Assembly: GCA_003164215.1 (NCBI GenBank)
Contig: PLSR01000003.1
Coordinates: 28,892-92,891, forward strand
Direction of reading: 5' to 3'
Length of the DNA: 64,000 nt
Source: Candidatus Kaiserbacteria bacterium
GTDB taxonomy: Bacteria > Patescibacteriota > Minisyncoccia > Phycocordibacterales > UBA2100
The notes beneath the pieces were generated by a model. That model had not been told where the DNA came from and made no database searches. It saw only the letters and a program-made list of their open reading frames with translations. Made by a program: the position numbers and the translations under genes. Positions 1-38,103 of the stretch are shown piece by piece; positions within the stretch are counted from its first letter, which is position 1; the number at the start of each line of letters is the position of its first letter.

Positions 1-63
1 CCCTGATCAGAGCCGGTTCTCCTATCTTTTGATTGAGATCTCCTATAAAGGTCCGTTCCATAT

Positions 64-999
64 TTATATCGTAACACCGAGCTTCGTGCGTACTTCCGCC
101 ATCTTTTTCGATGCGATCGCACGGGCTCGCTCCCCGCCTTCTCTCAAAATATTTCTCACGTCCTCATCCGTGATCGCTTCTCGTACTTCACGCATTGGAG
201 CAGCGAAGGCCTCGATATCCTCGATCAGGGATTCCTTGAGCGCCTTATATTTACCTTTGTTCTCTGTGTAGATAATGCTGAGATCGTCTTTTGATCGAAA
301 AAGCGAATGAATGGCGTAGACATTCTCAGGACTCTCTGCCTTGGAATCAGTCACGATCGACATCACCGCCTTCGCGATCTCATCTTTGGTGCCGAAAAGA
401 GGAATGGTGTTGCCGTAACTTTTGCTCATTTTGCGTCCGTCGGTGCCGGGTACGACTGCAACAGTCTCTAGTATGTGTTCTTTGGGCTCCTTGAACGTAT
501 CGCCGAACGTGTTGTTGAACTTCGCCGCCGCCTCGCGCGCGTATTCAACGTGCTGCTGCTGATCTTTACCGACCGGAACGATGTCAGTGTCATATAGAAG
601 AATGTCTGCCGCCATGAGCATCGGGTAATCAAAAAGTCCCATGTTCGCCTCCTTACCATTGGCGACCGCATCCTTGTACGCGTGCGCTTGCATAAGGAAC
701 GAAACAGAGACGAGACTATTGAAGACCCACGTGAGTTCGGTGTGCTCGGGCACGTCGGATTGCTTGAAGATGATGGACTGCGCAGGATCGATGCCGATGG
801 CGACGTATGCCGCAGCGATGTCGATGATGCCTGCGCGAAGCTCGCCTGGGTCGCGTAGCGAGTTGATGGAATGGTAATCGGCAACCATAAACATACAGTC
901 ATATCGAGGAGCCAATTCAACGAATTGACGCATCGCGCCAAAGTAGTTGCCCAGGTGCAAGGTGCCCGTTGGCTTTATTCCGCTAAAAAGCTTCTGCAT
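64..999 (-). CDS. trpS: tryptophanyl-tRNA synthetase
   Basis: 311 aa; N-terminal GIKPTG.LHLGN (HIGH-like) motif and KMSKS motif; class I aaRS architecture. Confidence 0.9.
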   Translation of the reverse strand: MQKLFSGIKPTGTLHLGNYFGAMRQFVELAPRYDCMFMVADYHSINSLRDPGELRAGIIDIAAAYVAIGIDPAQSIIFKQSDVPEHTELTWVFNSLVSVSFLMQAHAYKDAVANGKEANMGLFDYPMLMAADILLYDTDIVPVGKDQQQHVEYAREAAAKFNNTFGDTFKEPKEHILETVAVVPGTDGRKMSKSYGNTIPLFGTKDEIAKAVMSIVTDSKAESPENVYAIHSLFRSKDDLSIIYTENKGKYKALKESLIEDIEAFAAPMREVREAITDEDVRNILREGGERARAIASKKMAEVRTKLGVTI

Positions 1000-1031
1000 A
1001 GAGCTTCATAATACCAGAAAATCTGGCTTTT

Positions 1032-2645
1032 TTAAGCCGCAGGTAATTCGACGACGAATCGCGAACCTTTGCCGGCCCCTTGCGATTCAGCCCATATCTT
1101 CCCGCCGTGCGATTCGACGATGGTCTTTGCAATGAAGAGGCCGTAGCCGGTCGAGTGAACATTGACCTTGATGGAATCCTTGCCGTGGCCGCCTTCAGTA
1201 AAGAGACGCGCCTTGTCTTCGCCCGTGATGCCAACGCCGCTATCTTGCACTGAAAATCTCACGATGGTGCCTACACGCACAACTTCGATCGTGATAGAAC
1301 CAGTCGGAGTATATTTGATCGCGTTATCAACGAGGTTACGCACCACGTGGTCACGGATCTTTTCTTCATCGCCGCTCACCTTGCATGGCACTTCCCATGC
1401 GAGCGACATGTTCATGGTGAGATGTTTCTCATCGACCGCGGGTTTGAGATGATCGACCACGCCCCGTACGACATCCTTGAGATCGAAAACATCTTTCTTA
1501 TACGAGACAGTGCCACGTTTTAGATTCGAAGCATCGAGAATATCCATCACCGTTCGAACGCCACGGCGCACGTCGATCAAAGCTTCGTTCGCCATCGTGG
1601 AAATATCCGATGAGACCGGTCCGAAATCTCCCTGCGCTATCGCCGCAAATCCGGCCTCGCTCTTGGTAAGATAGCCCTTGATCTCATGGCTGATGAAGTG
1701 GAGCAGGCTCACCTGCTGTGCATTCACGTTCTCTAATTCAACTTCTTGTTTTTGAATCACCTCGCGTTGCTCGACCTCATTGAAAACACCTCGAATGAGG
1801 AGAATTCCGACGGCCAAGACTAGCACGAATACGCTTAATCGAAAGATAAGGATCGTTGGATCGGACGACAAGAGGATATCGAACAGGGTCAGAATAGCCA
1901 CGCTCCCGACAAGTAACGCCGTCGCGATGATCTTCACATTGAACAGATGATGTCTCGATATGGCATACGCGGTCAATATGATGAACGGAAAAATGAACAG
2001 AGGGCCATACTGAACGAACGAAGAATTACCAAGCACGGCTGGAGCTATGAAGTTAAACGCGAGGATGAGCGTGAATGTGATGACCGTACCCAAGAGAATA
2101 GTTCTATACGCCGCACGCTCTTCGTTCCGCGCTCGATATGTTTGAATGGCGAATTTGATGAAGCTTGTAATGATGAGCATCCCGACGAATAGACCGAAGA
2201 TCGCAATGGCAGGTCCGTTTGTCACATTTTGAACACGTCCGGTCTCAGAAAAACTCGTGATCTTCTCAAAAACGAACGGCGATAGGGTGAGCAGTGAGAC
2301 AAGCGCGGTCAGCGGAATGAGCACATGACGATACCACGCGGGAAGCGACCTCTTTTCAGCGGGAAAAACGTAATAAAAGTGAAAGAGCGAGAACGCGAAC
2401 CATGTCGCGGAGAACAGCAATGCTCGCAGAAGCCAGAGGACTATCTGCGGCGAAGAAGATTCATAGATCTCAATATTCAGAACGCACCAAATGATGGATG
2501 AGATCGCGATGTAGAGGAATGCTTGATGAGTCACACTTTTGCGATTGCTGATGAAAACGGCGAACCCGATGACAAGCATGAACGCAGCTACTACTGCGAC
2601 AAAAAAAAGATCAATATTCGTAAGATCGAAGTAGGCGTTTGTCAT
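1032..2645 (-). CDS. sensor histidine kinase with multi-TM N-terminal sensor domain
   Basis: 537 aa; about 7 hydrophobic helices at the N-terminus, then an H-box (LHFISHEIKGYL) and HATPase_c motifs (DSGVGI, GLGL-like); no adjacent response regulator. Confidence 0.8.
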   Translation of the reverse strand: MTNAYFDLTNIDLFFVAVVAAFMLVIGFAVFISNRKSVTHQAFLYIAISSIIWCVLNIEIYESSSPQIVLWLLRALLFSATWFAFSLFHFYYVFPAEKRSLPAWYRHVLIPLTALVSLLTLSPFVFEKITSFSETGRVQNVTNGPAIAIFGLFVGMLIITSFIKFAIQTYRARNEERAAYRTILLGTVITFTLILAFNFIAPAVLGNSSFVQYGPLFIFPFIILTAYAISRHHLFNVKIIATALLVGSVAILTLFDILLSSDPTILIFRLSVFVLVLAVGILLIRGVFNEVEQREVIQKQEVELENVNAQQVSLLHFISHEIKGYLTKSEAGFAAIAQGDFGPVSSDISTMANEALIDVRRGVRTVMDILDASNLKRGTVSYKKDVFDLKDVVRGVVDHLKPAVDEKHLTMNMSLAWEVPCKVSGDEEKIRDHVVRNLVDNAIKYTPTGSITIEVVRVGTIVRFSVQDSGVGITGEDKARLFTEGGHGKDSIKVNVHSTGYGLFIAKTIVESHGGKIWAESQGAGKGSRFVVELPAA

Positions 2646-3670
2646 CGTTGTTCGTTCAATGCCAAGTAATGACCGTGAGAATAAAACCTGAGCGAAGACC
2701 CTGCGTGTCTACGCTTTATATTCTGTTTTGTAGCGAAGCGCAAATTTGAGAATACCACGGCGTTCAGAAAGACGGGGTGCGACCAGCCGGTCAATGTTTG
2801 CGGCAGCAGGTGGATATCGCTTCGCAACCCGTCATAATTGAGGGAATATCTCCCCAGTACGGACATGATCTCCATAAGTTTGATCACCCCATCGTTGTCG
2901 AGGTGGTGTAAGAAAAGCATTGTCATCACCACAGTAAAATCTCGCGGTTGAAATTCCCGAGAAAGATCGAAAATATCATTTTGACATTGCACGATCAAAA
3001 CGGGGGTCTTGTGTTCTCTCTCAAGCCTAAGCAGGACATCTCTGCTAACGACATTCTCGCGCACGATCGTAACGCGAGGATCATGAGTCTCGTTGAACGT
3101 CTGCGCGACCAGTGTGTGGGCTAATTCAGATGTGTCGATGGTCATGATGGTGACGTTGCGCACCTGATCCCCGGAAAGGAGCGTGGTGACGAATTGTCGC
3201 TCGGCCTCAGCGGCACCGCTACCGAGCGATGCGATTCGAATGCGGCTATCTTTTGAAATTTGCACAAGACGCAGAAGGCATTCTACGACCGGTCGCGCGA
3301 TACCTGGAAAAGGTCGACGTTCGACCTCGGACAATTTGGCATGCATGATGTGGTCAAGGTCAGGCAGTATCTCATTGATCTCAAGAAGGTCATCCGGTTT
3401 GATCGAGTGGGAATGGATAAGCCATTTCACATATGAAGGCACCGTTCGTATCGCCTCAAAAAAACGCAGATTCTGCTCAATCGCGTACGCATTAGTCAGC
3501 GGATGATCGTCACGTTTCAGACCTTTCAATTGAGACAAAATATAAGTGATCTGCGCTGAACGATCCTCGGGCACTGTTCCAGTGCTCGGCGTTCGCTCTG
3601 CGGTGCTCATATTGTCCGTTTCGTTACTGCTCATAGGTAATGTGTGGAGCTCGTCGCTTTGTTCGCGCAC
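2642..3670 (-). CDS. hypothetical protein with Rossmann-like GxGxxA motif (possible NAD/SAM-binding enzyme)
   Basis: 342 aa ORF; IASLGSGAAEAE motif; 4-nt overlap with the upstream kinase gene; true start may be an internal Met near 3610-3634. Confidence 0.4.
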   Translation of the reverse strand: MREQSDELHTLPMSSNETDNMSTAERTPSTGTVPEDRSAQITYILSQLKGLKRDDHPLTNAYAIEQNLRFFEAIRTVPSYVKWLIHSHSIKPDDLLEINEILPDLDHIMHAKLSEVERRPFPGIARPVVECLLRLVQISKDSRIRIASLGSGAAEAERQFVTTLLSGDQVRNVTIMTIDTSELAHTLVAQTFNETHDPRVTIVRENVVSRDVLLRLEREHKTPVLIVQCQNDIFDLSREFQPRDFTVVMTMLFLHHLDNDGVIKLMEIMSVLGRYSLNYDGLRSDIHLLPQTLTGWSHPVFLNAVVFSNLRFATKQNIKRRHAGSSLRFYSHGHYLALNEQR

Positions 3671-4772
3671 TCGCTGGACGGTGCGGGAGGCCGATGCGCA
3701 AAATCATGACAACGCCTTTAGACCCGACGGCCTGTTCAATTGACTCTTGCGCCGCAAGGATCCTTTTTCGAAGCTGCGACGCGATATCCGGGTCATTTGT
3801 TCGCCTCACGTATTCCGCAAGATAGAGAAGTCCTGCAAGTGGTTGAGCGGCGAGACCTTCGGCAGTCGTGGTAAGCCACGCACGTTCCATGCACCTGCCT
3901 GCGTTTATAAAATCCTCTTGCGTGGTTCCGGTGAGTATGACCGCTATACAGGCTCCAGTTCTCGCGTATAAGGCGGAATTACCCAATGCCGCGCCTCGCG
4001 CGAAGCCGATACGATTGAGTGTCGCCGTCACGGGCCAGAAATTCAACGCCCGAAAAAGAAGTTGCACCGGGGGCGGTAATTCCATCGTCTTAATATACAT
4101 GCCTGCCTCACCATTCTCGTTCTTATTCTCATCCCAAAAAATACTATCGAAAAAAGATCGGTGAAGTTTCTTTGTTCGCAATGCGGCCTCTTCCATGAGC
4201 ACAGACGAATGAGCGATGGTCTCAATTGCGTGGCGATCAGTGACAAGTAGCGCCCGAGCATCGCCCTCATGAATATCGCGAAGATGCTCAAAGAAAGACG
4301 GCTGAATGATCTGATGATATGGATTGCGATTCGTGTGACGCTTTTCGATCGTGTGAAATAAAGGATGCCCCGAACGATCACGCTCGTCAAAATGTACACG
4401 TGCGACGGCGTCGTCCTCTCCGTGAGAAAGATCAATAGCGGTATCGAGCCCGTCTTCCTGTGCGGCGATCGAGATATTTTCCACGAGCGCTCCGATCGCG
4501 ATCATCGTGCCGCGAGCCTCAATATTGAGGATCGGGTTATCGAGCTCGGGAAGCGCGTAAACATAGACCGTGTCACCCTTGACGGCAAAACGCCACGGTT
4601 GCGTATTATCGCCGGAAGGCGCCTTGGTACCGTGATGAAGAATTCGCTCGAGACGACTGCGGTCGATCATACGTATGATCTCATGGAAGTCCGATCGCGC
4701 GACGGAATTCGGCACGACGAGCATCTCGCTCAGTTTTTCCATCTGCATACGTCGGGTCGAAGATCGAGTCAA
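3624..4772 (-). CDS. nitroreductase-family (SagB/McbC-like dehydrogenase-type) protein, probably tandem NTR fold
   Basis: 382 aa; APSGDNTQPWRF matches the nitroreductase FMN-site signature; about twice the single-domain NTR length; overlaps neighbouring genes. Confidence 0.7.
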   Translation of the reverse strand: MTRSSTRRMQMEKLSEMLVVPNSVARSDFHEIIRMIDRSRLERILHHGTKAPSGDNTQPWRFAVKGDTVYVYALPELDNPILNIEARGTMIAIGALVENISIAAQEDGLDTAIDLSHGEDDAVARVHFDERDRSGHPLFHTIEKRHTNRNPYHQIIQPSFFEHLRDIHEGDARALLVTDRHAIETIAHSSVLMEEAALRTKKLHRSFFDSIFWDENKNENGEAGMYIKTMELPPPVQLLFRALNFWPVTATLNRIGFARGAALGNSALYARTGACIAVILTGTTQEDFINAGRCMERAWLTTTAEGLAAQPLAGLLYLAEYVRRTNDPDIASQLRKRILAAQESIEQAVGSKGVVMILRIGLPHRPASARTKRRAPHITYEQ

Positions 4773-5796
4773 GGCTTATTTCCACCTTCTGCTGAGTCAG
4801 CGGTTGCTTGAGCGCGATCCGCCTCAATGCGTAGGCGATGGCAACACCGGAAAGCGTCGCGGCGTCACCCAGTTGTGGCCAGGAGTAGATCGTCTTCCCC
4901 ACCTGTAACAACGACTCTGTCATGCGTATGGTGACGAGGTCAGGACCCGCGATCTTCGTCGCCAATCGAGGCAATTCCTGCGGCGGGAACGATCTGAATT
5001 CTTCGATCGTGATGTCCCCTATCGCGCCGTTGAAAAGCTGAGCATTGCGATCGAGATCGAACCGATCTGCTTCAAAAATGATGTTGTCGCCATTATCAGT
5101 TGCCATGATGACCGGAATACCGCGCTTACGCGCCTCGAATCGAAGGCGTATTTTCATCTCAAGGTTGTCTGTTTCTTCGACCAGGACGTCGATATCGGAC
5201 AGAAATGCATCCATGTTCGCTTCCGAAACTCCATCAGGAAATGACTCCACATCGGCATACGGATTGAGCTGGTAGAGATATTCGCTCGTTAGATCAGTTT
5301 TCTTCTTACCGACATCAAGAAAATCGAAGCGTATGCGGTTCAGATTAGAGGGCGACACTGTATCCGGGTCCGCGATCTTCACGTGACGGCCGCCACCCAT
5401 GAGCGCAAAGGTCGCGACGCCGTGACTGCCTACTGATAGACCAGCGTATGCGACTCGCAAGCCGTAGAGCGCGGCTTGCTCGTCCTTCTTGATGATCTCT
5501 CTATTGCGCGCGGTGCGTATCTCAAGATGCTCTGATTCTGTGAGATAGTGGGCGCATGTTCGATTCCAAGGAAAGTAGAACCATTCGCCGCATTCCGACA
5601 GCGATTTACCGACAGCGTATTCTCTCGTGAATTGTTCAAGTTCAGAAACGTGATCTTTGATGAATTTGAAACGCGGATTCCGTATGAGGAAAAGATCCTC
5701 AAGGAGCAGTTCGTACTGATCGATGATATTTGCCGGCTTCAATCGCCCGACGAACGATCCATATGTCTCAGTGCTTCGGTCAAGTCGTTCAGGCAT
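4681..5796 (-). CDS. ThiF/MoeB/E1-like adenylyltransferase with ~110-aa N-terminal extension
   Basis: 371 aa; nucleotide-binding loop YAGLSVGSHGV..GGG and DPDTVSPSNLNR typical of the E1/ThiF fold. Confidence 0.75.
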   Translation of the reverse strand: MPERLDRSTETYGSFVGRLKPANIIDQYELLLEDLFLIRNPRFKFIKDHVSELEQFTREYAVGKSLSECGEWFYFPWNRTCAHYLTESEHLEIRTARNREIIKKDEQAALYGLRVAYAGLSVGSHGVATFALMGGGRHVKIADPDTVSPSNLNRIRFDFLDVGKKKTDLTSEYLYQLNPYADVESFPDGVSEANMDAFLSDIDVLVEETDNLEMKIRLRFEARKRGIPVIMATDNGDNIIFEADRFDLDRNAQLFNGAIGDITIEEFRSFPPQELPRLATKIAGPDLVTIRMTESLLQVGKTIYSWPQLGDAATLSGVAIAYALRRIALKQPLTQQKVEISLDSIFDPTYADGKTERDARRAEFRRAIGLP

Positions 5797-5819
5797 GCTG
5801 AAATGATATCACGCCATTT

Positions 5820-7316
5820 TCAATTTTGTTTGAGTACCCACCGCTGCTTGATATCTCGCCTGAAATACGCCGGGTCTTCATAGGGCCAGTACACAATTTT
5901 GGGGACGGATCGGGCACCGAGAAAGTTGCACAGTTCACGAAACTCTGAATTCTTCTCTTTGAGATTCTTTATGATCTCGGCGAGCAATAACGCTGAGAAC
6001 TCGGGGCTGGCCTCTCTCCCCTGACGTAACTCGACGTTGATCTCAAGATATTGGTCGTGCGAGTCATCAAAACGCGTAGCAAGTGTCAAGCGGCCCGACA
6101 GGAACGGGGCGAATGATTCTCCGAGCAGGACCTCTTTGACGGTCTCCGGATAGACTTGTAATCCGTACAAAGTCGCCGAGAGATCACTACGCTCATACAC
6201 ATAGACGAACGGCAACAATCGAAGATCATCTGGGATCTTTGCGGCCTTCATTTCCTTCAAAAGATCGACACCGTGATCCGCCATGATCCGTTCAATTTCA
6301 GCGAATGTATACACGCCGCCATTGTCGCCGATCGCATACCGCATAAGCGGCATGGCGCTATCCGCCGAGAGTAGCAATTGCCCTTCGTGTTGTTCGAATG
6401 CAGTGTAGGCGGGAATGTTCTGCGCGAGTGTCGGCGTTTTGCTGATATCGCCGAACAAGGTCTTAAAAATTTCAGGTTTTTGTATCGCGATCTGACGAAC
6501 ACGAATAGAGAGCGGTGTCTCGAACGCCATCGTTCCCACGTCCGCGCTCCCGTATACATTCATTGTATCGGTCAGCGGGTTCTTTATGTTCGCCTTTTTC
6601 ACGACGTAATCTCGAAATTGCTCGGTGAATGCTTCTGCCGCGAAAAGAATTGCCACTTTGTGATTCTTTAAGGAAATACCTGCCTCGGCCGCACCGTCGA
6701 GGACATCTTTGATGAACGGCGGATACCCGGTAAGAATGATCTGTTTGTAGCTGGGAGCAAGTTTTCGAAGTATTTTCAGTATTTCGGTGCGGTTGATGCC
6801 CGGAGTAATGATGGATATCGGATGCCCGCGTTTTGACATAAGCTCGAAGGCTTGGTATGTCAACAGGCCGCCGATCCAGATCCCCATGCCGAAGCATATG
6901 ATGACAAGCGTAGATTCCGTTTTCGAGAGCGAAGTCTGAAGAAAAAAGCGCTCATGGATCAGCGCAGATTGTTCGTCGATGGTCGGTGACCGTCCGAAGA
7001 AGAACGGTTCCCCGGTCGAGCCGGATGTTGAAGTAAGCACATGTGGCGTCGCCAGTGAGCCGCCCCAAAAAAGATCTGCATATTTTGCAGGGCGTAGATA
7101 GTTGTCCTTTGAGGTAAGTGGTATGCGCAACAGATCGTGGTCTGTCTTGATATCCGCAGCTCGAGTCCCTGCATTTTTCAGGAATTTCTTATATGCCGGC
7201 ACTTCTGCCGCCATTTTGTGGAACAATCGCACGAGCGTAGAATCGGCCCGTGGAGATTCTGGGCTACGAACCTTCTTCGTACTCTTTTTCAGCCGTGGGC
7301 GAACCGATTGTTGCAT
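5820..7316 (-). CDS. adenylate-forming enzyme, PaaK/CapK/F390-synthetase-like (ANL superfamily)
   Basis: 498 aa; P-loop-like TSTSGSTGEPFFF (A3 motif) and YGSAD (A5-like) motifs. Confidence 0.6.
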   Translation of the reverse strand: MQQSVRPRLKKSTKKVRSPESPRADSTLVRLFHKMAAEVPAYKKFLKNAGTRAADIKTDHDLLRIPLTSKDNYLRPAKYADLFWGGSLATPHVLTSTSGSTGEPFFFGRSPTIDEQSALIHERFFLQTSLSKTESTLVIICFGMGIWIGGLLTYQAFELMSKRGHPISIITPGINRTEILKILRKLAPSYKQIILTGYPPFIKDVLDGAAEAGISLKNHKVAILFAAEAFTEQFRDYVVKKANIKNPLTDTMNVYGSADVGTMAFETPLSIRVRQIAIQKPEIFKTLFGDISKTPTLAQNIPAYTAFEQHEGQLLLSADSAMPLMRYAIGDNGGVYTFAEIERIMADHGVDLLKEMKAAKIPDDLRLLPFVYVYERSDLSATLYGLQVYPETVKEVLLGESFAPFLSGRLTLATRFDDSHDQYLEINVELRQGREASPEFSALLLAEIIKNLKEKNSEFRELCNFLGARSVPKIVYWPYEDPAYFRRDIKQRWVLKQN

Positions 7317-7340
7317 ATATTGCCCTACACGATGACATAT

Positions 7341-8384
7341 TTACGATCGTTGAACAAGGTCACGCAGGTGCTTCAAAACGATGCCCTGATGCTTGGGAGA
7401 TGGGACCGCCATCCGTATGGTATTACTCAGCAGCGTTCTGGCGGGGTCATACGCGGACATCCATGATCCTTCGGATACGTGAATTTTCCGCTTATGTAGC
7501 AAGCTCGAAAGAGAAACGGCATCCGGAACCCGAAACAAAATGAAATTCGTGGCAGAAGGATAAGCGGTGACGCCGGATATGGTACGGAGCTCGGTCAATA
7601 TATCGTCGCGCATGTCTGCAATAAGTCTGCGGCGTGCCACGAATTCTTTTGCTCGCACAAGTAAAGCCTGTGCGATGACGACGCTGGGATGTGCTACCGG
7701 CCATGGCAGGAGCGCGCGCGTTATGAGAGGGGTAATGTCCGGCGACGACATACAGTAGCCAATTCGTGCTCCCGCAAGCCCGAAGGATTTCGAAAGTGTG
7801 CGAAGAATAACGATCGATTGCGAATCGAGCCGTTCGATCGAGGTTTCTCCACCGAATTCAAAATAGGCTTCATCAACGACGGCAAGTATGCCATACTTTT
7901 GCGCCGCATCGAGCACTTTCTTGAGGTCCTCATGCGGAATAGAAGATCCAAGTGGATTATTTGGTGTACAAAGAAATATACATCCCACGCGACTCGCGGC
8001 GATGGCTTCAAGTACGTCGGCTGTTGGAAAAATAAAAGCTCCATCGACCTCATGGTAATAAAACGGAATGACAGTGGCGCCTTTTTGTTCAGCAATTCGC
8101 TCGTATCCGTAAAATGTGGGTACCGGAAGACCGATGGGCAGACCCGTGTGTTCGCAGTATTCGGTCAAGATAGAGATCGCCGCATCTGAGCCGGCAGTGA
8201 CGTTCACACGTTCCCGATCGACACCCGCATAACGGGCCAATGCGTCCAATAATGCGTCGTATGATGGATAGGTAGACAGTGTCTGCGCTTTCAACAATTC
8301 CGCCAAGCCACCTATGATCGCGTCATCCAGCAACCAATAACTTTCGTTATGTGCCAAAGGAATTATACCCGTACTGCCGTTCAT
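7341..8384 (-). CDS. class I/II PLP-dependent aminotransferase, histidinol-phosphate/aromatic aminotransferase-like
   Basis: 347 aa; PLP-lysine motif LSKSFGLAGARIGY; NPLG motif. Confidence 0.8.
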   Translation of the reverse strand: MNGSTGIIPLAHNESYWLLDDAIIGGLAELLKAQTLSTYPSYDALLDALARYAGVDRERVNVTAGSDAAISILTEYCEHTGLPIGLPVPTFYGYERIAEQKGATVIPFYYHEVDGAFIFPTADVLEAIAASRVGCIFLCTPNNPLGSSIPHEDLKKVLDAAQKYGILAVVDEAYFEFGGETSIERLDSQSIVILRTLSKSFGLAGARIGYCMSSPDITPLITRALLPWPVAHPSVVIAQALLVRAKEFVARRRLIADMRDDILTELRTISGVTAYPSATNFILFRVPDAVSLSSLLHKRKIHVSEGSWMSAYDPARTLLSNTIRMAVPSPKHQGIVLKHLRDLVQRS

Positions 8385-8400
8385 AGTCTTTGAACTCTCA

Positions 8401-8898
8401 TCAGCTTCGAACGAACGCGAGGATGATAAACACCCCTAGGAACCACAGAAGTGCATAGGGTAAGCCGAAAATCGCATGGATCTGATTGCCAGGATTCCAT
8501 AGTGCGACGAGAGCCGGTATCTGCAACCACATGACTATGAGCGCGATAGTTCCACTTATACCGGCGAGGAAGGAATTCATCAGTCCGCCCGATGACCCCC
8601 CGAACGTTGCCGTCATGCGGTTCGTGAGAAGAAATACTGCGATAAAGATCACGACCAAAATACCTGCCATGACATATGTCGATGCCAAAAATGGAGCGAT
8701 CACACTTTCCAATAGGAATGTATGCGGAATGAGACTAAAAAGAAATAGTGATACGGGTGACGTGATTGCGATTATAGAAGCATGTGCCGCACCCGAGCGC
8801 ATCGCATCTATGGTGAGCAGAAGGACAAGTAGAACGAAGACGATCCAGCCGAACGGGATGTGAGTGAGCCAGGTGGGAAAAAGAGCAGAAAGATTCAT
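8401..8898 (-). CDS. hypothetical integral membrane protein (about 5 TM)
   Basis: 165 aa, strongly hydrophobic; start overlaps the dnaJ stop by 4 nt, implying co-transcription. Confidence 0.5.
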   Translation of the reverse strand: MNLSALFPTWLTHIPFGWIVFVLLVLLLTIDAMRSGAAHASIIAITSPVSLFLFSLIPHTFLLESVIAPFLASTYVMAGILVVIFIAVFLLTNRMTATFGGSSGGLMNSFLAGISGTIALIVMWLQIPALVALWNPGNQIHAIFGLPYALLWFLGVFIILAFVRS

Positions 8899-8901
8899 AG
8901 A

Positions 8902-9999
8902 TCAAAGTCCTTCTGCACGCAACTTATCAATAAGGTCTCGCGCAGAGCGGGAAAGTTTCTTCGGAAATTCGATGTCGACGCGAATGATGAGATCGCCACG
9001 GCCGCCGCGAGCGGTTGGGACACCTTTTCCGCGGATCCTGATAGTCTCGCCATGCACAATACCGGCAGGTACCGTGACGACTTCTTCACCATCAAGCGTC
9101 GAGATGCGATACTCGCCGCCGAGAAGTGCATCGGTGAGCTTGATCGGAAGTGCCGTGAGCAAATTATTGCCGTCACGCGAGAATGATGCGTCGGTCTTCA
9201 CGTGCAATTTTACATAAAGATCCCCCGCGCTGCCGCCCTTGGCCGCTTCACCGCGACCCGGCATACGGATCATCTCACCATCTTGGACTCCTCCGGGGAC
9301 AGTAACGTGGATCTCCTCCTGACGCTTCGTCACGCCCGCTCCACGGCAGGTCTCGCATGGTGTCTCCGGGATCTCACCGCGGCCGCTGCAGGTCGGGCAC
9401 AAGCGTGCTGACGTGAAGTTCCCGAAGAAGGTGTTGCGGGTCTCACGAATATCACCCTTGCCGTTGCAGGTCTTGCAGGTGATCATTTTCGAACCCTTCT
9501 TGGCTCCAGTACCGCTGCACACGTCGCAGACCGCCATCTTCGAGATGAGCACCCGGCGATCTGTGCCGAAAATACTCTCTTTAAATGAAAGCTCGATATC
9601 GATGGAAATGTCGCGCCCTCGCTGTTGACCGCGCCCACCGCCACCATTGCCCCCGAAAATATCACCGAAAATATCACCGAGGTCGAATTCGACATTCTGC
9701 CCATTGAAACCCTGGAATCCTTGCTGGAAATTTGAGAAATCGAACCCACCGAATCCTGCGCCGGATGCCGCACCGTTGCCTCCCGCAAATGTCTTGCCGT
9801 ACGTATCGTATTCCGCCCGCTTCTTTTTATCTGAAAGCACGGAATACGCCTCGCTCAGCTCTTTGAATTTGGCCTCATCGCCGCCCTTTTTGTCGGGATG
9901 ATGTTTCTGCGCGAGTTTGCGGAAAGCTTTTTTTATATCGTCTTCAGTCGCGGATTTCGAAAGCCCAAGAATATCGTAGTAATTCTTCATAGAGGTCAT
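8902..9999 (-). CDS. dnaJ: molecular chaperone DnaJ
   Basis: J-domain with HPD motif, G/F-rich region, four CxxCxGxG zinc-finger repeats. Confidence 0.9.
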
Positions 10000-10065
10000 T
10001 ATATTCTCGCATCGCTAAACGCACAACGTGACGCAGTACGTTGAATTTCACACAATGAGCGTTGA

Positions 10066-11922
10066 TTATTTTTGCTCAGCGTCCGGAGCCGGGGGTGTTT
10101 CTTCTGCAGGTGGCTGTTGCTGTCCTTTCGACATCGATTCGCCGATCTTACTCATCTCGCTCGAGAGCGCACCCGTAGCTGTTTTGATGGCAGAAATATC
10201 GGAGCCGGCGCGGGCAGATTTCAAAGCGTCGATCTTTTCCTGAACTCCCTTCTTGATGTCATCGGTCACCTTGTCGCCGTGCTCTTTCAGTGCTTTTTCT
10301 GCAGCATATACCAATTGGTCGGCACTATTCTGTGCCTCCACCAATTCCTGCTTCTGCTTGTCGGTCTCCGCATTCACTTCCGCATCCTTGCGCATCTTTT
10401 CTACTTCTGCATCAGAAAGACCGGACGAAGCTTCAATGCGTATCGATTGTTCTTTATTGGTGGTCTTATCCTTCGCTTTGACCGAAAGAATGCCGTTGGC
10501 GTCGATATCGAATGAGACTTCGATCTGCGGCATGCCGCGCGGCGCCGGCGGAATACCATCGAGATTGAATCTACCGAGCGATTTGTTGTCAGCTGCCATC
10601 GGTCGTTCACCCTGCACGATATGGATCTCGACCGAAGGCTGATTGTCAGATGCAGTCGAGAACGTTTGTGAGCGCGAGGTCGGGATCGTCGTATTGCGCT
10701 CGATAAGCTTGGTCGCTACGCCGCCGTACGTCTCGATCCCGAGCGACAGTGGGATCACATCCAGCAAGAGTACGTCCTTTACATCACCTTGCAAAATTCC
10801 GCCCTGTATAGCTGCGCCGAGTGCAACGACTTCGTCGGGATTCACGCTCAAATTCGGCTTCTTGCTGAAGAATGTCTCGACGGCTTTCTGCATCGCCGGC
10901 ATGCGCGTCTGACCACCGACGAGGATGACTTCGTTGATATCGGGGATCTTGAACGGCGATGCTTCCATCGCGCGCTTGGTGATCGTCATAGCGCGTTCAA
11001 TAAATTCATTGGTGAGCTCTTCGAGCTTCGCGCGCGACATCTTCACGAGCAAGTGGCGCGGACCGGAAGAGTCGGACGTGATGAACGGGATGTTGATCTC
11101 GGTCTCTACAGCAGTCGAGAGCTCGATCTTCGCCTTTTCTGCGGCCTCATCAAGGCGTTGGCGTGCGAGCGGATCATTTCGCACATCGATGCCGGATTCT
11201 TTCTTGAATTCCTCCGCGATCCAATCCATTATTTTTTGATCGATGTCTTTGCCACCGAGATGTGAGTCACCATCTGTTGAACGTACTTCGATGACATCGT
11301 CGCCCACTTCGAGAACGGAAATATCGAACGTACCGCCGCCGAAATCAAAGACGACGATCTTCTCGTTCTTCTTTTTGTTGAATCCGTATGCGAGTGCCGC
11401 TGCCGTCGGCTCATTGATGATGCGCTTCACGTCCAAGCCCGCGATCTTGCCGGCATCTTTCGTCGCTTGACGCTGTGCGTCGTTGAAATATGCCGGCACG
11501 GTGATAACGGCCTCCGTGATCGTCTCTCCGAGGCGGGCTTCCGCATCGACTTTCAATTTTTGAAGTATCATCGCGGAGATCTCTTCCGGGCGGTACCATT
11601 TGTCGCCCATTTTGACCTCTATGCCGCCGGTAGCTGATTTCTGCATCTCGAACGGGACCGACGTGCGATCTTTTTGAACAGCCGATTCGTCGAAGTTGTG
11701 GCCGATGAAGCGCTTGATCTGGTAGATCGTATTCTTAGGATTTGTCACTCCCTGACGGCGTGCGAGCAGACCGACGAGTCGTTCACCCGTCTTCGAGGTG
11801 GCGATCACCGACGGCGTTGTGCGCGCACCTTCCGCATTCTCAATGATCTCCGGCTCACCGCCTTTGACGACCGCCATCGCGGAATTCGTCGTGCCCAAGT
11901 CTATTCCAAGAATTTTTGCCAT
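10066..11922 (-). CDS. dnaK: molecular chaperone DnaK (Hsp70)
   Basis: 618 aa; [10 protein letters not shown] and DLGGGTFD Hsp70 signatures. Confidence 0.95.
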
Positions 11923-11959
11923 AGAATTTATTTATCGTGATAAATAATTGCAGGTAATC

Positions 11960-11993
11960 TATATTATATACACAATAAAAACACGCTTGTCAA
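11960..11993 (-). promoter_or_regulatory. sigma70-like promoter upstream of dnaK (TTGACA - 17 nt - TATATAAT)
   Basis: minus-strand reading TTGACAAGCGTGTTTTTATTGTGTATATAAT about 40 nt upstream of the dnaK ATG, in an AT-rich spacer between grpE and dnaK. Confidence 0.45.
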
Positions 11994-12012
11994 ATTCCGC
12001 GGGTGTGGGAAA

Positions 12013-12570
12013 TTATTTTTTAACGATCACCTGCGCCGGTCGTATTACGCGATCACCCGTTTTGTACCCGAACCGAAGAACGCGGACGATCTCACCACTT
12101 TCCCCCGGCATGTCATCCACTTCCTGCACTGCTTCGTGAAGTTGGTGGTCGAACTGCTCTCCAACCTTAGCAAATCGTTCTATGCCGTGACGCGAGAGCA
12201 CATCGAGAAGTTGGTTGCGGATGAATTCGATGCCGTTGCGCCAATTTTCGTCAACCGCCAGCCACGCCTCTCCACCCGCTGCCATATCGAAGCTGTCCAA
12301 GACCGGGATGATATCCTCTATGACGGTCTCTTTGCCGCGACCGTGCGCACGATCATGCCGCTCTGTCGCCTCTTTGCGTGCATTGATAGAGTCCGCTTTG
12401 CATCGCTGCCATCCATCGAGATATTCATCACGTTTTTCCTTTGTCTCTTTCAACTCGTCGCGCAATTTTTTGACCTTCGCCTGTGCTGCGCCGATATCGC
12501 CCATCTCATCCTCGGGCTCGAAATTTATTTCTTCATCGGAGTGTTCGTTCATACGGGGCGAGTATAGCAT
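12013..12570 (-). CDS. grpE: nucleotide exchange factor GrpE
   Basis: 185 aa; coiled-coil N-terminus and GrpE C-terminal motif (ELRNGIEF-like, RPAQVIV). Confidence 0.85.
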   Translation of the reverse strand: MLYSPRMNEHSDEEINFEPEDEMGDIGAAQAKVKKLRDELKETKEKRDEYLDGWQRCKADSINARKEATERHDRAHGRGKETVIEDIIPVLDSFDMAAGGEAWLAVDENWRNGIEFIRNQLLDVLSRHGIERFAKVGEQFDHQLHEAVQEVDDMPGESGEIVRVLRFGYKTGDRVIRPAQVIVKK

Positions 12571-12688
12571 AATTCGACATCAAAACAGAGGCTCCCACAC
12601 GTTGTCTGGAGGATCAGATCCTCCAGAATAATCGCTTACGCACGAAGCCGCATATCGTTACGTTCGACGGTGTGTTACTGCGTTACCT

Positions 12689-12720
12689 CGAAAGAAAACA
12701 ACCCCGTGTGGGGTTGTTTG
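12689..12720 (-). terminator. intrinsic terminator downstream of rpsI
   Basis: minus-strand hairpin AACAACCCC-ACAC-GGGGTTGTT followed by TTCTTTC, 22 nt after the rpsI stop. Confidence 0.5.
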
Positions 12721-12741
12721 TCTTCGCCGTACTCATCGAAA

Positions 12742-13140
12742 CTAGCGCTTTGACCACTGAGGTGCACGACGTGCCCCCTTGAGGCCGAACTTCTTGCGTT
12801 CCTTAGCTCGAGGATCACGCTTGAGGAACCCACGGACCTTGAGATCTTTGCGTTGCTCTGGGACGATCTCGATCATGGCGCGAGAGATTCCGAGTCGGAC
12901 GGCTTCGGCTTGTGACTTATGTCCGCCGCCTGAAACTTTTGCCGTCACGGTATACGTCGCTCCGAGAAGCGCGATTGGAGCGAACGCTGTCTTTACCATC
13001 ATGGCAAGTGGAAAATATTCCTCAGCCGGTTTGCCGTTGACGACCATCGTCGAGCTCTTGGAGGGCGTGATGCGAACACGGGCAGTCGCGGTCTTCCTGC
13101 GTCCAACCGCTTCCGTATACATCGCTGCTTTTGTTGCCAT
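12742..13140 (-). CDS. rpsI: 30S ribosomal protein S9
   Basis: 132 aa; C-terminal ...PQWSKR, a typical S9 ending. Confidence 0.9.
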   Translation of the reverse strand: MATKAAMYTEAVGRRKTATARVRITPSKSSTMVVNGKPAEEYFPLAMMVKTAFAPIALLGATYTVTAKVSGGGHKSQAEAVRLGISRAMIEIVPEQRKDLKVRGFLKRDPRAKERKKFGLKGARRAPQWSKR

Positions 13141-16766: not shown

Positions 16767-18281
16767 TTATTGGCCTTTTGCAGTGGAGGACGTTAGCGGT
16801 CCGGTGATTTCGATCTTGATCTTTGAGGGATCGCTCGGAAAACTACTGCTCCAGAATGGCTCTATACGGGCTCGCGCCGCCTCGATCCCGGGGAATCCCC
16901 CAATGACGGTCTGGAAGACGCTCTGGTCACGCCCTGCGAGCGCTTTCGCGAGGGCAGTCGTGTCAATGCTCCAGAGTATCTGCGCAGATCCGACGAGCGA
17001 AAAGTCGATAGGGGCCGTCCCGAGGGCGACCGGCGTTGTATTGGTCGGCTGTGCTCCATACCCTGTCCCGCCGATCACTTGGACCGGAGTGTTGTTCGTA
17101 TCGATCGCCATCGTCTGAGCAATAACTGCCGCAAATGCGTCTGAAGCAAATACCGGCACCTGGATGTGCACACTTTCCCCGATCGTCACCTGACTGCTTG
17201 TCGCAACTACATCAGGAAGGTCGCTGTAGGTTATCTCTGCAAGACCCGTGAATGCGACCGAACCCGGTACATTTTGCGATTGAACGTATTGCGCTGCCCG
17301 TTGTGCCAGACGCGTGCGCATATCTGAAACGGCAGCCTGGCGAATACTCGCGGAAATGCCGGGTTGTGTTCCTGAAAAGCCCCCGGTCATCGAGCCGGAC
17401 GATTGGGCATAAATTCCCGCATACATAGCGGCATTGGACTGGAGGCCGGGAACAGTGAGGCGTGGAGTAGGTCCGATGTTGTACTGCTGACCAACTTGAT
17501 CTGCGAATACGGTGACCGTCACTTGACCGGGGGTCGAACCTTGTTTCCCCGGGATGACGACATCCGCTGGAACACGGAATATCAGGCCGGCAGGCGTCTG
17601 GAAGCGGGTGTCCTTGATGAGTTTGACGCTCGCCGTGGAATAATTGTTGTACACCGTGATGGAGCCCGATGCTTTCATCTGGGTCTCAGTCGTACCGTTG
17701 CTCTGAACCGTTTCAGAATCCTGTAAATCGGTCGTTGCGACGGTATATGCGAGCGTCCCAGTTGCGGCACTCGATGCGGGGTATGCGCTAAATTCAGAGG
17801 TCTGGTCGAAATTCACCGTTTGCGTCCGTGCTGTCAGAGTGACCGTCGTGGAACGGAACATGAAAAGCGCCAGAAATCCAACTACAACCACCCCGATGAC
17901 CGCAAGGATCCAAATCCATACACGGGAATACTTGGAACGCGGCTTCGGAGGCAATCCGCGGCCCGACCCCGTGGACGGTGTCTCGCCGAGTTCGTTCGTC
18001 GATGATCGATAGCGTGCTCGGGGCGGCATGTTTATGTTGCGAATACCACGCGCCGGAGCGGCATCTATTGTTGAAATGTCATCATCGTCGTACTCAGGAG
18101 CTGACTGAGCCATGACAGACGGCTGCTCCGGTTGGTTTGGAGGAGCGATTGGAACCTTTCGCGTTGTCGGGCGAATCGGACGGTCACCCGATGGCGGGAC
18201 AATATCCTGAAAATAATCTTTGGCCATATGACTCAGTAGTATACCACGCACCCGGTCAGGACTGCTCTTCGGTGTTGACAA
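16767..18281 (-). CDS. hypothetical single-pass membrane protein (Pro-rich cytoplasmic N-terminus, TM, large Thr/Ser/Gln-rich extracytoplasmic domain); possible PilN/PilO-like
   Basis: 504 aa; TM segment VWIWILAVIGVVVVGFLALFMF near residue 130; INMPP motif resembling the PilN INLLP motif; 26-nt overlap with the upstream actin-fold gene. Confidence 0.5.
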   Translation of the reverse strand: MSTPKSSPDRVRGILLSHMAKDYFQDIVPPSGDRPIRPTTRKVPIAPPNQPEQPSVMAQSAPEYDDDDISTIDAAPARGIRNINMPPRARYRSSTNELGETPSTGSGRGLPPKPRSKYSRVWIWILAVIGVVVVGFLALFMFRSTTVTLTARTQTVNFDQTSEFSAYPASSAATGTLAYTVATTDLQDSETVQSNGTTETQMKASGSITVYNNYSTASVKLIKDTRFQTPAGLIFRVPADVVIPGKQGSTPGQVTVTVFADQVGQQYNIGPTPRLTVPGLQSNAAMYAGIYAQSSGSMTGGFSGTQPGISASIRQAAVSDMRTRLAQRAAQYVQSQNVPGSVAFTGLAEITYSDLPDVVATSSQVTIGESVHIQVPVFASDAFAAVIAQTMAIDTNNTPVQVIGGTGYGAQPTNTTPVALGTAPIDFSLVGSAQILWSIDTTALAKALAGRDQSVFQTVIGGFPGIEAARARIEPFWSSSFPSDPSKIKIEITGPLTSSTAKGQ

Positions 18282-19410
18282 GTGCCCCCGCGATCAAAAG
18301 TTCGACATCGGGCGGTGTAGCAGCATCGAAAGCAATGAGATGTGCAAGCTCCGCGCGACCGAGTGCATGAACGGAAAACGGCTGCGCCGTGAGCGTGCAT
18401 TGCGTGAAATCGATGCGCGCAAAAAAGGTCGTGAGCCATGGGACAAGATCGCTGTGGGTCACCAAAATAAGATCGGGTGGAAGACGCCTCGGTACTGCCA
18501 CTTTCGTCAACGCTTCTCCATATACCCGCGCCAGATCGATCTCGACACGTGCCATTGATGCCGTCACTGCATCGCAGACATCGCCCGTACATTCATCGCG
18601 CTCGATCATGCGTAAAAGAGAAAGCGTTTCCTCCGGTGTGCTTTTTTCGGCAATTCTTTTAACGATGGTGCGTACTCCTTCCGCGATCTGCAGATGCTGC
18701 ATCGCAAGACCGTCACGTATGACAAGCACATTGGTCGCCTCTGCCGTGACCGCAAGGATCACGCAATCTTTGCCGATATTCGGGATGACATTCATCGCCG
18801 AGACGAGCGCACGCGAGCCGGAACGCAACGTCAGTTTCGCACCCGGGAAAAGATGTGCAAGTGATCCAGCGACCTCTTTTTGTATCGTATCATCGCAATC
18901 GCTTAAGAGTACTGCTACGGAGATCCGATGAGCCATTTTACCGATGGGAGATCCGGTGGGATAGCCGTTGAGCTCAACGCGGACGACGGTAGATTCGATC
19001 AGGCGGTCTTTAACTATTTCAGTGTCCGCGCCAATAGCTTTTTGAGCGGACTCCTGGATCATCGCGCCGGTGACCCGCGTCTCTTTATCGAACGTAGTTG
19101 TGGCTCGCACCGTATGTGAACGTATCCAGGGGGCGTCAATGACCGCATACACTTCAGTGATCTTGTGTCCCTTATGTGGACCGATCGCGTATCGAGCGAG
19201 CAACTTCTGACCTGCATCTGACAGGCTTGCCAAGACACCTGTTCTCATCGCGCTTTCCGTGCGATCTTCGAACGGTAAGGTCACACGCTCGGCTTCGATG
19301 ACAGTAGCCGGTCCGTCGTTGTTCATAATGAGCAACGCAATACCGGCGCTCGCGCTTCCGATATCCGCAACGGCAACTACTCTCTTTGATGCGATCGTTC
19401 TTCCGAACAT
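18256..19410 (-). CDS. ASKHA (actin-like ATPase) fold protein, PilM/FtsA-like or Ppx/GppA-like
   Basis: 384 aa; N-terminal phosphate-1 loop VVAVADIGSASAGIAL and later glycine-rich ATPase motifs; family assignment uncertain. Confidence 0.5.
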   Translation of the reverse strand: MFGRTIASKRVVAVADIGSASAGIALLIMNNDGPATVIEAERVTLPFEDRTESAMRTGVLASLSDAGQKLLARYAIGPHKGHKITEVYAVIDAPWIRSHTVRATTTFDKETRVTGAMIQESAQKAIGADTEIVKDRLIESTVVRVELNGYPTGSPIGKMAHRISVAVLLSDCDDTIQKEVAGSLAHLFPGAKLTLRSGSRALVSAMNVIPNIGKDCVILAVTAEATNVLVIRDGLAMQHLQIAEGVRTIVKRIAEKSTPEETLSLLRMIERDECTGDVCDAVTASMARVEIDLARVYGEALTKVAVPRRLPPDLILVTHSDLVPWLTTFFARIDFTQCTLTAQPFSVHALGRAELAHLIAFDAATPPDVELLIAGALVNTEEQS

Positions 19411-24692: not shown

Positions 24693-24947
24693 TTACAACG
24701 CGCCTTCTGCCTTGAGAATCGCCTTCTTACGAAGCGCACCTCCGCGATTGTAGCTGCCGAACGAGCCATCACTTTTGATGACACGGTGGCACGGTATATC
24801 CGGATCGAAATTCGTTCGCATAATTGCCCCGACCGCGCGAGCGGCTTTCTCATTGCCGGCTTTTTTTGCAACTTCCTTATACGTCATTGTCTTCCCTTTC
24901 GGAATTTTCCTGACGACATCTCTGACCTTGTCTGCGAAGGTTTTCAT
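24693..24947 (-). CDS. minimal O6-alkylguanine-DNA alkyltransferase (MGMT C-terminal domain only)
   Basis: 84 aa; PCHRV active-site motif with the cysteine retained, so a potentially active transferase rather than an ATL. Confidence 0.7.
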   Translation of the reverse strand: MKTFADKVRDVVRKIPKGKTMTYKEVAKKAGNEKAARAVGAIMRTNFDPDIPCHRVIKSDGSFGSYNRGGALRKKAILKAEGAL

Positions 24948-25744: not shown

Positions 25745-25757
25745 ACGGCCCAGTATA

Positions 25758-38073: not shown

Positions 38074-38103
38074 ATGCGTACCCTGCCTTTTGATTTGAAT
38101 ATA

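Follow-up and report, generated by a model that had tools for sequence, protein, structure and literature searches.

The DNA considered here is a 64,000-nucleotide stretch of contig PLSR01000003.1 from a Candidatus Kaiserbacteria assembly (GCA_003164215.1), called the window below, whose best protein matches are named "Candidatus Paceibacterota", "Kaiserbacteria" and "Parcubacteria" and thus indicate a Patescibacteria (Paceibacteria/Kaiserbacteria-like) genome. A row of minus-strand genes near its beginning encodes, in order, DnaK, DnaJ, a 165-aa membrane protein, an aminotransferase, an adenylate-forming (ANL) enzyme, a ThiF-like protein, a flavoprotein, a methyltransferase-like protein, a histidine kinase, and tryptophanyl-tRNA synthetase (TrpRS), the cassette genes among them being tightly packed, with overlaps or intergenic gaps of 10–25 nt. 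Judging from their sequences, the ThiF-like gene and the gene for the flavoprotein, a homolog of flavin-dependent oxidases (FDO), would be the two halves of an oxazolone-synthase-type enzyme, and they belong to a cassette of four genes that recurs across Patescibacteria. Our best reading is that the cassette makes oxazolones by a variant pathway independent of a CoA-transferase, possibly with a link to signaling.

The ThiF-like and flavoprotein pair

A sequence-only reading of this DNA had described an E1-like gene beside a nitroreductase gene, and both are indeed strongly conserved open reading frames (ORFs) on the minus strand. The ThiF-like protein has 1096 database matches at E ≤ 1e-5, the best at 76% identity, and with such conserved homologs the pair represents real genes and not chance ORFs. 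A mechanical call for the nitroreductase-like gene gives an ORF of 382 aa (3624–4772). Since its relatives are 345–358 aa long and an in-frame ATG lies at 4670, 10 nt past the ThiF stop, this ATG is probably the true start (Table 1). The window enzyme is encoded by two genes 10 nt apart and not as one polypeptide.

The relationship of the pair to a known enzyme emerges from the NCBIfam model NF005901 ("Rv1355c family protein"). Residues 25–354 of the ThiF-like protein match profile positions 39–347 of this model with 250 bits, the FDO matches positions 359–715 with 155.5 bits, and the two proteins joined virtually give a single collinear match (residues 25–714 against positions 39–715 of 722) with 409.5 bits. 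Two cassette orthologs that are naturally fused, L075 and L079, score 452 and 534 bits, the latter passing the curated equivalog cutoff of 476 bits, and a Rhodococcus reference protein scores 839 bits. Direct alignment gives the same order of parts: residues 66–348 of the ThiF-like protein are 36% identical (E 4e-58) to residues 68–352 of a Rhodococcus qingshengii plasmid protein named as an Rv1355c family protein by the Prokaryotic Genome Annotation Pipeline, and residues 5–343 of the FDO align by BLASTP over their whole length, and collinearly, with residues 380–723 of that protein at 22% identity. Relatives of the ThiF-like protein at E ≤ 1e-30 form 871 clusters (50% identity); among the 150 best representatives, which we inspected, 103 have the split length and 43 the fused length.

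Rv1355c was characterized as TrzS in December 2025 (PMC12856293). Its substrate, N-acyl-L-tryptophan, is supplied by the acyl-CoA-dependent acyltransferase TrzA and is turned into an N-acyl tryptazolone by ATP-dependent cyclization followed by O2-dependent desaturation; D217A and R540A variants of TrzS have been reported (PMC12856293). The same two reactions are carried out with tyrosine by OxzB (2021; bioRxiv 10.1101/2020.06.11.147165) and by the split pair TyzB/TyzC (2023; PMC10404671). According to a 2025 review, oxazolone formation is the sole ThiF-like chemistry known on a small molecule, as opposed to a protein, peptide, or tRNA (PMC12596934). The pair being a split homolog of the small-molecule enzyme TrzS/Rv1355c, a non-peptide substrate, which the sequence-only reading had offered as one option, is most likely.

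The residues needed for such reactions appear to be intact in both halves. G119, S121, G123, D143, N151, N153, R154, K166, and D210 of the ThiF-like protein are invariant in 120 homologs, and by sequence the G119/S121/G123 loop and the six residues that follow it in this list are those expected for nucleotide binding and catalysis in a ThiF fold (the class to which D217 of TrzS belongs, the comparison being one of class). The motifs APSxxNxQPW and RxxNRxxY, predicted to form the FMN site of the FDO, are conserved in 65 homologs. No Cys is conserved in the ThiF-like protein, where no Cys column exceeds 51 of the 120 sequences; hence, a Zn site is lacking, as is thioester or persulfide chemistry.

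The sequence-only reading had remarked that the nitroreductase is about twice the usual single-domain length, and this is so: the FDO has roughly double the length of an ordinary nitroreductase monomer because it belongs to the Acg family, with its tandem nitroreductase fold. The NCBIfam Acg-family model covers residues 44–375 of the FDO ORF (E 5.8e-42, 144 bits), and MsAcg (PDB 2YMV) matches ORF residues 37–315 (E 2.5e-6). In this FDO subgroup, a monomer takes the form of the usual nitroreductase homodimer and contains a single active site (PMC10404671). The NCBIfam matches of the FDO at E ≤ 0.01 are confined to Rv1355c, PRK14851, the Acg family, and PRK14852, and the SagB/McbC-type dehydrogenase model TIGR03605 is absent from them. 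Elsewhere in the window (42200–46308, minus strand) lies a haem-copper oxidase gene set, comprising a UbiA-family prenyltransferase (CtaB/CyoE-like), COX4_pro, COX3, and COX1, the last a protein of 741 aa with a 140-residue N-terminal extension; this set would fit an O2-exposed lifestyle and an O2-using flavoprotein.

The ThiF-like protein carries an N-terminal extension, as the sequence-only reading had noted, and it is both folded and conserved, but its length of about 110 residues has to be revised: the Pfam ThiF domain (PF00899; residues 98–232, E 2.3e-21) begins at residue 98, which leaves an extension of about 95 residues. D26, R39, K44, G70, W72, P76, L85, and H90 within it are invariant in the 120 homologs. 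An AlphaFold2 model of the whole protein reaches a pLDDT of 92.8 and a pTM of 0.91, with the extension above 90, and modeled alone the extension forms a compact alpha/beta domain (pLDDT 90.8). The proposal that it might be a recognition domain for ribosomally synthesized and post-translationally modified peptides (RiPPs) finds no echo in this structure. A Foldseek search of the PDB with the isolated extension returned no structural relative and no similarity to any structure containing a RiPP recognition element (RRE), the best E being 1.0 and the template-modeling (TM) score at most 0.28, while the full-length model aligns with AclA, MoeB, ThiF, PaaA, and MccB within the adenylation domain of about 260 residues. 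AclA (PDB 9egb) is the top structural match of the ThiF domain; a literature search on it yielded nothing relevant. Most of the 150 best cluster representatives, split and fused forms alike, align from about residue 22, and in actinobacterial Rv1355c proteins, where the extension is partly conserved, the alignment starts at residue 40 or 66. On this sequence comparison, the extension appears as a family trait of Rv1355c-type proteins, and its role could be that of a substrate lid or a subunit interface.

These results bear on two readings suggested by the domain names. An E1-like protein next to an FMN dehydrogenase recalls the C and B components of thiazole/oxazole-modified microcin (TOMM) systems. 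The extension, moreover, sits where the RRE sits in MccB and PaaA (PMC12596934). One could thus imagine a TOMM or RiPP variant lacking the YcaO cyclodehydratase, in which the E1-like protein docks a precursor, the ANL enzyme activates backbone amides, and the nitroreductase oxidizes azolines, but we find this hardly credible. As the sequence-only reading had stated, no YcaO is recognizable in the window, where our Pfam scans covered the cassette genes and ORFs of at least 98 aa beyond 16 kb, and no precursor peptide is obvious: the overlaps and short gaps of the cassette leave no space for a peptide gene, and clustering of ORFs of at least 70 aa at the 83 loci compared below gave no conserved small-ORF cluster. 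That the FDO is of the Acg/FDO type and lacks a SagB/McbC-type match also counts against a TOMM framing. In TOMMs, E1-like proteins are known that serve in docking only, unlike the window ThiF-like protein with its complete nucleotide-binding and catalytic residues, and the nearest characterized relative of the pair works on small molecules. As the YcaO, SagB-type dehydrogenase, RRE, and precursor peptide gene expected of such a system all failed to appear in these scans, we reject the TOMM/RiPP reading.

The second is ordinary activation of a sulfur carrier or ubiquitin-like protein, that is, a ThiF, MoeB, or E1 function. The Pfam ThiF domain and weak matches to the ThiF and MoeB models speak for it, but those matches score 42–66 bits against cutoffs of 152–449, the lack of a conserved Cys leaves neither a Zn site nor a catalytic Cys, nowhere in the window does an ORF of 40–130 aa end in Gly-Gly, and the pairing with an FDO and a PaaK-like gene is constant, so that we give this reading next to no weight and reject it. 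Both alternatives that the sequence-only reading had allowed for, a split TOMM and ordinary sulfur transfer, miss the closest relative, Rv1355c/TrzS, and no ThiS/MoaD gene is present. TcdA, the dehydratase that makes cyclic N6-threonylcarbamoyladenosine (ct6A) in tRNA, was considered since it too forms an oxazolone; it was rejected because its model gives 23 bits against 250 for Rv1355c and because TcdA has no FDO partner.

Table 1. Features of the cassette region, with positions in the window
Feature	Position	Strand	Remarks	Basis
HisC-like class I/II aminotransferase	7341..8384	-	347 aa; accessory gene	Pfam Aminotran_1_2, E 5.8e-45
PaaK-like adenylate-forming (ANL) enzyme	5820..7316	-	498 aa	NCBIfam PaaK; family profile against PaaK structures
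ThiF/E1-like ATP-dependent cyclase homolog	4681..5796	-	371 aa	Pfam ThiF (PF00899); NCBIfam NF005901
N-terminal extension of the ThiF-like protein	5512..5796	-	residues 1-95; autonomous alpha/beta domain	modeled alone; conserved
Acg-type tandem nitroreductase-fold FDO homolog	3624..4670	-	~348 aa; start probable	NCBIfam NF005901 and Acg family
Class I methyltransferase-like protein	2642..3670	-	~310-342 aa; optional member between FDO and kinase	weak Methyltransf_25/11 matches in a homolog
HisKA_7TM sensor histidine kinase	1032..2645	-	537 aa; fourth core gene	Pfam HisKA_7TM and HATPase_c
TrpRS	64-999	-		

The four-gene cassette across Patescibacteria

A genome scan that took one genome per GTDB species, with clade-specific search patterns that reached only Patescibacteria, found a close relative in at least 148 species, and all those examined are Patescibacteria, including Paceibacteria, Kaiserbacteria, Wolfebacteria, Liptonbacteria, Lloydbacteria, Magasanikbacteria, and Doudnabacteria. 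We compared 83 Patescibacteria loci by tblastn and by clustering of all ORFs, counting a locus as evaluable for a given gene when its contig reaches far enough. Of 72 loci evaluable for it, 71 have a PaaK-like gene upstream of the ThiF-like gene and on its strand, 58 of them with the two genes directly adjacent; the FDO follows the ThiF-like gene in 79 of 80 (adjacent in 74), and 65 of 69 have a seven-transmembrane (7TM) kinase downstream. Other neighbors, among them aspartyl-tRNA synthetase, DnaJ, and TrpRS, are less frequent, none occurring in more than 20 of the 83 loci. Four genes that stay together between variable flanks constitute a four-gene cassette and not background synteny. Conserved Paceibacteria synteny was accordingly considered and rejected as the sole explanation, for DnaK/DnaJ and TrpRS flank about 20 of the 83 loci, and the core four persist through rearrangements and fusions.

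More distant relatives (32–39% identity) carry the same parts in other arrangements. At L091, the order is FDO, dehydrogenase, ligase, ThiF, alpha/beta-hydrolase, kinase; at L092 (8001–11729), a single ORF of 1242 aa unites dehydrogenase, PaaK-like, and ThiF-like domains; at L093 (153–2927), a protein of 924 aa fuses a ThiF-like part with an aromatic ammonia-lyase/aminomutase of the type bearing 4-methylideneimidazole-5-one (MIO); and at L095 (3556–6588), ThiF, FDO, and alpha/beta-hydrolase are joined in 1010 aa. The kinase is kept in all four of these rearranged cassettes. L075 and L079 have the natural ThiF + FDO fusions scored above, and L027 (11120–13132) encodes an FDO + methyltransferase-like fusion of 670 aa. 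Gene fusions that link cassette parts are independent evidence that the parts work together. The sequence-only reading had proposed that the ANL enzyme belongs to the system, acting in place of a YcaO; the first part holds, given its place in 71 of 72 loci and its fusion to the ThiF-like domain in L092, but as to the second, it most likely replaces an N-acyltransferase.

The product of the fourth core gene, the kinase, has an H-box His as well as N, G1, and G2 boxes, all conserved in 65 homologs. The window contains no gene for a receiver domain (response regulator). In 12 loci, single-domain response regulators, encoded by one or two receiver-only genes without a DNA-binding output domain, lie beside the cassette and usually upstream of the ligase (L038 218–1033 and L047 6905–7738 are examples). 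The kinase could sense a lipophilic product or regulate the pathway; its strict co-location with the other three genes is what we observe.

The enzyme pair itself is of a known kind, the oxazolone synthetases. The literature we searched yielded nothing relevant linking oxazolones, ThiF, or nitroreductases with Patescibacteria, nor did we find in it a PaaK-like front end, alternating deaminating enzymes, an obligatory 7TM kinase, or the restriction to and spread within Patescibacteria.

Contexts outside Patescibacteria come from plasmids and from look-ups of six distant cluster representatives. On plasmid pDV of Nitratidesulfovibrio vulgaris (L088 5086–8055), a ThiF-family protein of 989 aa lies among PEP-CTERM/exosortase genes; the PRK14852 model, also of 989 positions, has a ThiF region at about 310–460, a nitroreductase region at about 610–810, and extra N-terminal sequence. 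This protein may represent another oxazolone-type system in a different context. On a Kitasatospora plasmid (L085 6137–9021), a ThiF-family protein of 616 aa has a C-terminal part of 326 aa that is 34% identical to the window protein, N-extension included; an unassigned 290-aa region precedes the matching part, and a gene for ketoacyl-acyl carrier protein synthase III follows.

Proposed precursor supply and chemistry

The ANL gene product is a distant relative of PaaK, matching NCBIfam PaaK (TIGR02155) with E 7.8e-12 and 44 bits against a cutoff of 646, and its family profile matches PaaK structures with E 1.2e-14. Across 69 homologs, the motifs TSGSxGxP, YG, and GD are conserved, as is a C-terminal Lys. 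It is thus predicted to belong to the PaaK subfamily by fold without being PaaK itself. It also matches the FlxY model weakly (E 6e-5), and the family profile weakly matches the 6SIW and 6WUQ chains, which we take to be NatL2 and AjiA1, PaaK-like ligases of benzoxazole biosynthesis.

Three non-homologous types of deaminating enzyme alternate in or beside the cassette. A HisC-like aminotransferase is found near it in 18–19 loci, the window included, mostly directly upstream of the ligase; the hisC and CobD models both score below their cutoffs for the window protein. An amino-acid dehydrogenase of the Glu/Leu/Phe/Val (ELFV) type occurs in 19 loci, usually again directly upstream of the ligase, and its best curated match is the tryptophan dehydrogenase ScyB (284 bits, below the cutoff). 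The third type is the MIO lyase/aminomutase domain of L093; no MIO lyase gene was found in the window. The methyltransferase-like gene, with conserved GxGxxE and LHHL motifs, lies between FDO and kinase in 10–11 loci including the window. An acyltransferase family did not appear in the window Pfam scans, and a tblastn search with the 252-aa neighbor of a Rhodococcus Rv1355c gene, not a verified TrzA homolog, found no match in the window or the 83 loci.

Putting these parts together, we infer the chemical steps, the substrates, and the part played by the kinase as follows. With ATP, the ThiF-like protein would adenylate an N-acylated amino acid at its carboxylate, upon which the amide oxygen would close a 5(4H)-oxazolone ring, and the Acg-type flavoprotein, with FMN and O2, would remove two hydrogens across C-alpha and C-beta to give an unsaturated oxazolone. 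Because no acyltransferase gene was found in the cassette, the N-acyl amino acid would probably not come from an acyl-CoA-dependent N-acyltransferase as in the known systems. An amino acid, probably aromatic or hydrophobic, may be deaminated to an arylpyruvate or arylacrylate, by the HisC-like aminotransferase in the window and by an amino-acid dehydrogenase or MIO ammonia-lyase/aminomutase in other species; the PaaK-like enzyme would then activate the resulting acid and couple it, directly or via a thioester, to another amino acid at the amine of the latter. Tailoring of the product may be the task of the methyltransferase-like protein, and the downstream 7TM histidine kinase might either control the pathway or respond to its lipophilic product or some related cue. 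Patescibacteria are generally regarded as lacking the biosynthesis of fatty acids and CoA, and a ligase route that does without acyl-CoA would for this reason suit them.

As an explanation of the cassette, a split oxazolone synthetase of the TrzS/OxzB type with ligase-based precursor supply has, in our estimate, somewhat better than even chances. Several points weigh against it. The virtual fusion falls short of the equivalog cutoff of NF005901, and the identity of the FDO to the actinobacterial domain, 22%, is low for assigning it the same reaction. Only about half of the loci have a deaminating enzyme next to the cassette; the reactions of the aminotransferase and the dehydrogenase are reversible, and these enzymes could therefore supply an amino group instead of removing one; and the MIO domain of L093 appears equally good as an aminomutase, with 547 bits for the tyrosine 2,3-aminomutase model (cutoff 501) against 542 for a histidine ammonia-lyase subfamily model. 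The absence of an acyltransferase comes from the single tblastn search with an unverified query, over the window and the 83 loci rather than whole genomes, and the TrzA-type acyltransferase has no Pfam model. Amide formation by the PaaK-like enzyme is something we purely infer; this enzyme could instead be a maker of CoA thioesters for an acyltransferase encoded elsewhere. The kinase, finally, is linked to the pathway by position, with no response regulator in the window.

Some of these points would equally suit a reading in which the same enzyme families carry out a different chemistry. The carboxylate built by the ligase would then not be a classical N-acyl alpha-amino acid but, say, a conjugate of a beta-amino acid, or one with an arylpyruvoyl or cinnamoyl group, and the product would be another heterocycle or an activated ester and not a 4-arylidene-oxazolone. 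Besides the score below the cutoff and the divergent FDO, it is supported by upstream enzymes wholly unlike TrzA and OxzA, by an MIO domain (that of L093) scoring above the cutoff for tyrosine 2,3-aminomutase, and by the alpha/beta-hydrolase or methyltransferase-like protein that is present in addition in some clades. Set against this are the end-to-end collinearity with Rv1355c, including the family-specific N-extension, and the cassette ortholog L079, which passes the equivalog cutoff. Furthermore, according to the 2025 review, ThiF-like enzymes have no known small-molecule chemistry other than oxazolone formation (PMC12596934). On balance, we think a different chemistry possible but unlikely.

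Clearly lower still is the chance that the cassette processes host-derived compounds, such as N-acyl amino acids or aromatic acids, by salvage or detoxification, with the kinase sensing the substrate. PaaK proper is catabolic, and deaminating enzymes are typical of catabolism. Patescibacteria, moreover, rely on hosts for metabolites (PMC11665869). ATP-driven cyclization and desaturation would yield a reactive azlactone, however, and not a catabolic intermediate, and every characterized relative is biosynthetic; we hold the host-compound reading to be very improbable.

Oxazolone synthesis from ligase-supplied precursors also admits a more far-reaching version, a self-contained signaling module. 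One amino acid would be turned into an aryl acid and attached by the PaaK-like amide ligase to a second amino acid, which supplies the ring, so that two amino acids would give an electrophilic, lipophilic oxazolone without any acyl-CoA or fatty-acid metabolism, and the 7TM kinase would be its receptor. We regard this version as quite doubtful, though less so than host-compound processing. If it were true, the oxazolone would be a candidate autoinducer or host-contact signal for ultra-small, host-dependent bacteria; we know of no earlier such signal in Patescibacteria, a matter on which we made no specific search.

The discovery of oxazolone natural products, and of the ThiF-plus-flavoprotein enzymes behind them, dates only from 2021–2025, and the organisms studied have been Proteobacteria and Actinobacteria. 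A conserved small-molecule pathway would be unexpected in Patescibacteria, which have minimal genomes, are believed to synthesize next to nothing on their own, and have almost no described secondary metabolism. If oxazolone synthesis by the cassette is confirmed, the ligase and deaminating front end would be a second way to an N-acyl amino acid precursor, independent of acyl-CoA pools, and the strictly co-located sensor kinase provides a testable handle on what oxazolones are for, possibly signaling. A likely annotation trap would also be corrected, as labels such as "nitroreductase" are currently attached to these genes.

As for the rest of the window, DnaK, DnaJ, GrpE, and several ribosomal-protein ORFs at 8.9–16.4 kb lie outside the Pfam scans and are recognized by synteny only. 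A promoter and terminator scan of positions 1–13000 gave counts no better than shuffled sequence (9 versus 11.6, and 16 versus 13.2). On the minus strand at 1008–1038, where 32 nt separate the kinase gene from TrpRS, a weak terminator-like hairpin (GGCTTAAAAAAGCC followed by a T-rich tail) and a promoter-like site, which has a TG extension, overlap each other. The hairpin may mark the end of the cassette transcription unit; counts of such sites here are at chance level. Other genes include one for a small RRM_1 (RNA-recognition motif) protein with a Gly/Arg/Ser-rich tail (41101–41457, minus strand) and, at 24944–26588 (minus strand), a PD-(D/E)XK nuclease gene followed by a gene for a protein with ATP-cone and Mrr-type restriction endonuclease domains. 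Sizeable ORFs with no Pfam family (504, 384, and 396 aa) lie at 16767–19410 (minus strand) and 37472–39700, and the start of the 384-aa ORF resembles, by eye, an actin-fold protein of the PilM/FtsA type.

Comparison with known systems

With the cyclodehydratase-dehydrogenase complexes for TOMMs and for linear peptides that contain azol(in)es (LAP), composed of an E1-like C, a YcaO D, and a SagB/McbC B protein, the window shares an E1-superfamily protein next to a nitroreductase-superfamily FMN protein. Unlike them, it has no YcaO, SagB-type dehydrogenase, RRE, or precursor, and its E1-like protein keeps the adenylation residues. The front end of the cassette has a counterpart elsewhere: in flexirubin biosynthesis, the tyrosine ammonia-lyase FlxA is paired with the PaaK-like acyl-CoA ligase FlxY, so that, as proposed for the cassette, the aryl acid left by a deaminating enzyme is activated by a ligase of the PaaK family. 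The PaaK-like enzymes NatL2 and AjiA1 can couple acids to nucleophiles independently of CoA. The similarity of the window ligase to those of the flexirubin and NatL2/AjiA1 pathways is very weak, however, and neither pathway has a ThiF-like or FDO step.

The window FDO scores about equally on PRK14851, a 679-position ThiF + nitroreductase model that we presume to represent the OxzB type, and on Rv1355c. In OxzAB of Pseudoalteromonas rubra, OxzB is likewise built from ThiF and nitroreductase domains, here in one polypeptide, and makes oxazolones from N-acyl aromatic amino acids (bioRxiv 10.1101/2020.06.11.147165). It differs from the window pair in that the ThiF half of the latter is only weakly similar to it (71 bits, versus 250 for Rv1355c) and in being accompanied by the N-acyltransferase OxzA. 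A gene arrangement like that of the window is seen in TyzACB (Rv2336–2338c), the tyrazolone system of Mycobacterium tuberculosis, where the cyclase TyzB and the single-domain FDO TyzC are also separate adjacent genes (PMC10404671). TyzA, however, is an acyl-CoA-dependent N-acyltransferase, and no kinase has been reported for TyzACB. TyzB groups with OxzB in a ThiF subcluster apart from TrzS, and TyzC forms its own FDO subcluster, A23 (PMC12856293; PMC10404671). The window ThiF-like protein is set apart from TyzB by a score on the Rv1355c model far above that on any other.

The closest system is the N-acyl tryptazolone pathway of TrzA/TrzS (Rv1356c/Rv1355c), known from M. tuberculosis, Mycobacterium smegmatis, and Rhodococcus jostii (PMC12856293). 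Its hosts are mycolic-acid actinobacteria, whereas the window host belongs to Patescibacteria; TrzS is one polypeptide, whereas the window enzyme is split, with 36% identity in the ThiF half and 22% in the FDO half; and in place of a TrzA-like acyltransferase, none of which was detected in the window, the cassette has the PaaK-like ligase, a deaminating enzyme, and the 7TM kinase. Like TrzS, the window pair has the same N-extension, a ThiF-like cyclase followed by an Acg-type FDO, and conserved ATP-site residues, some of its cassette orthologs are fused, and the two enzymes are collinear throughout.

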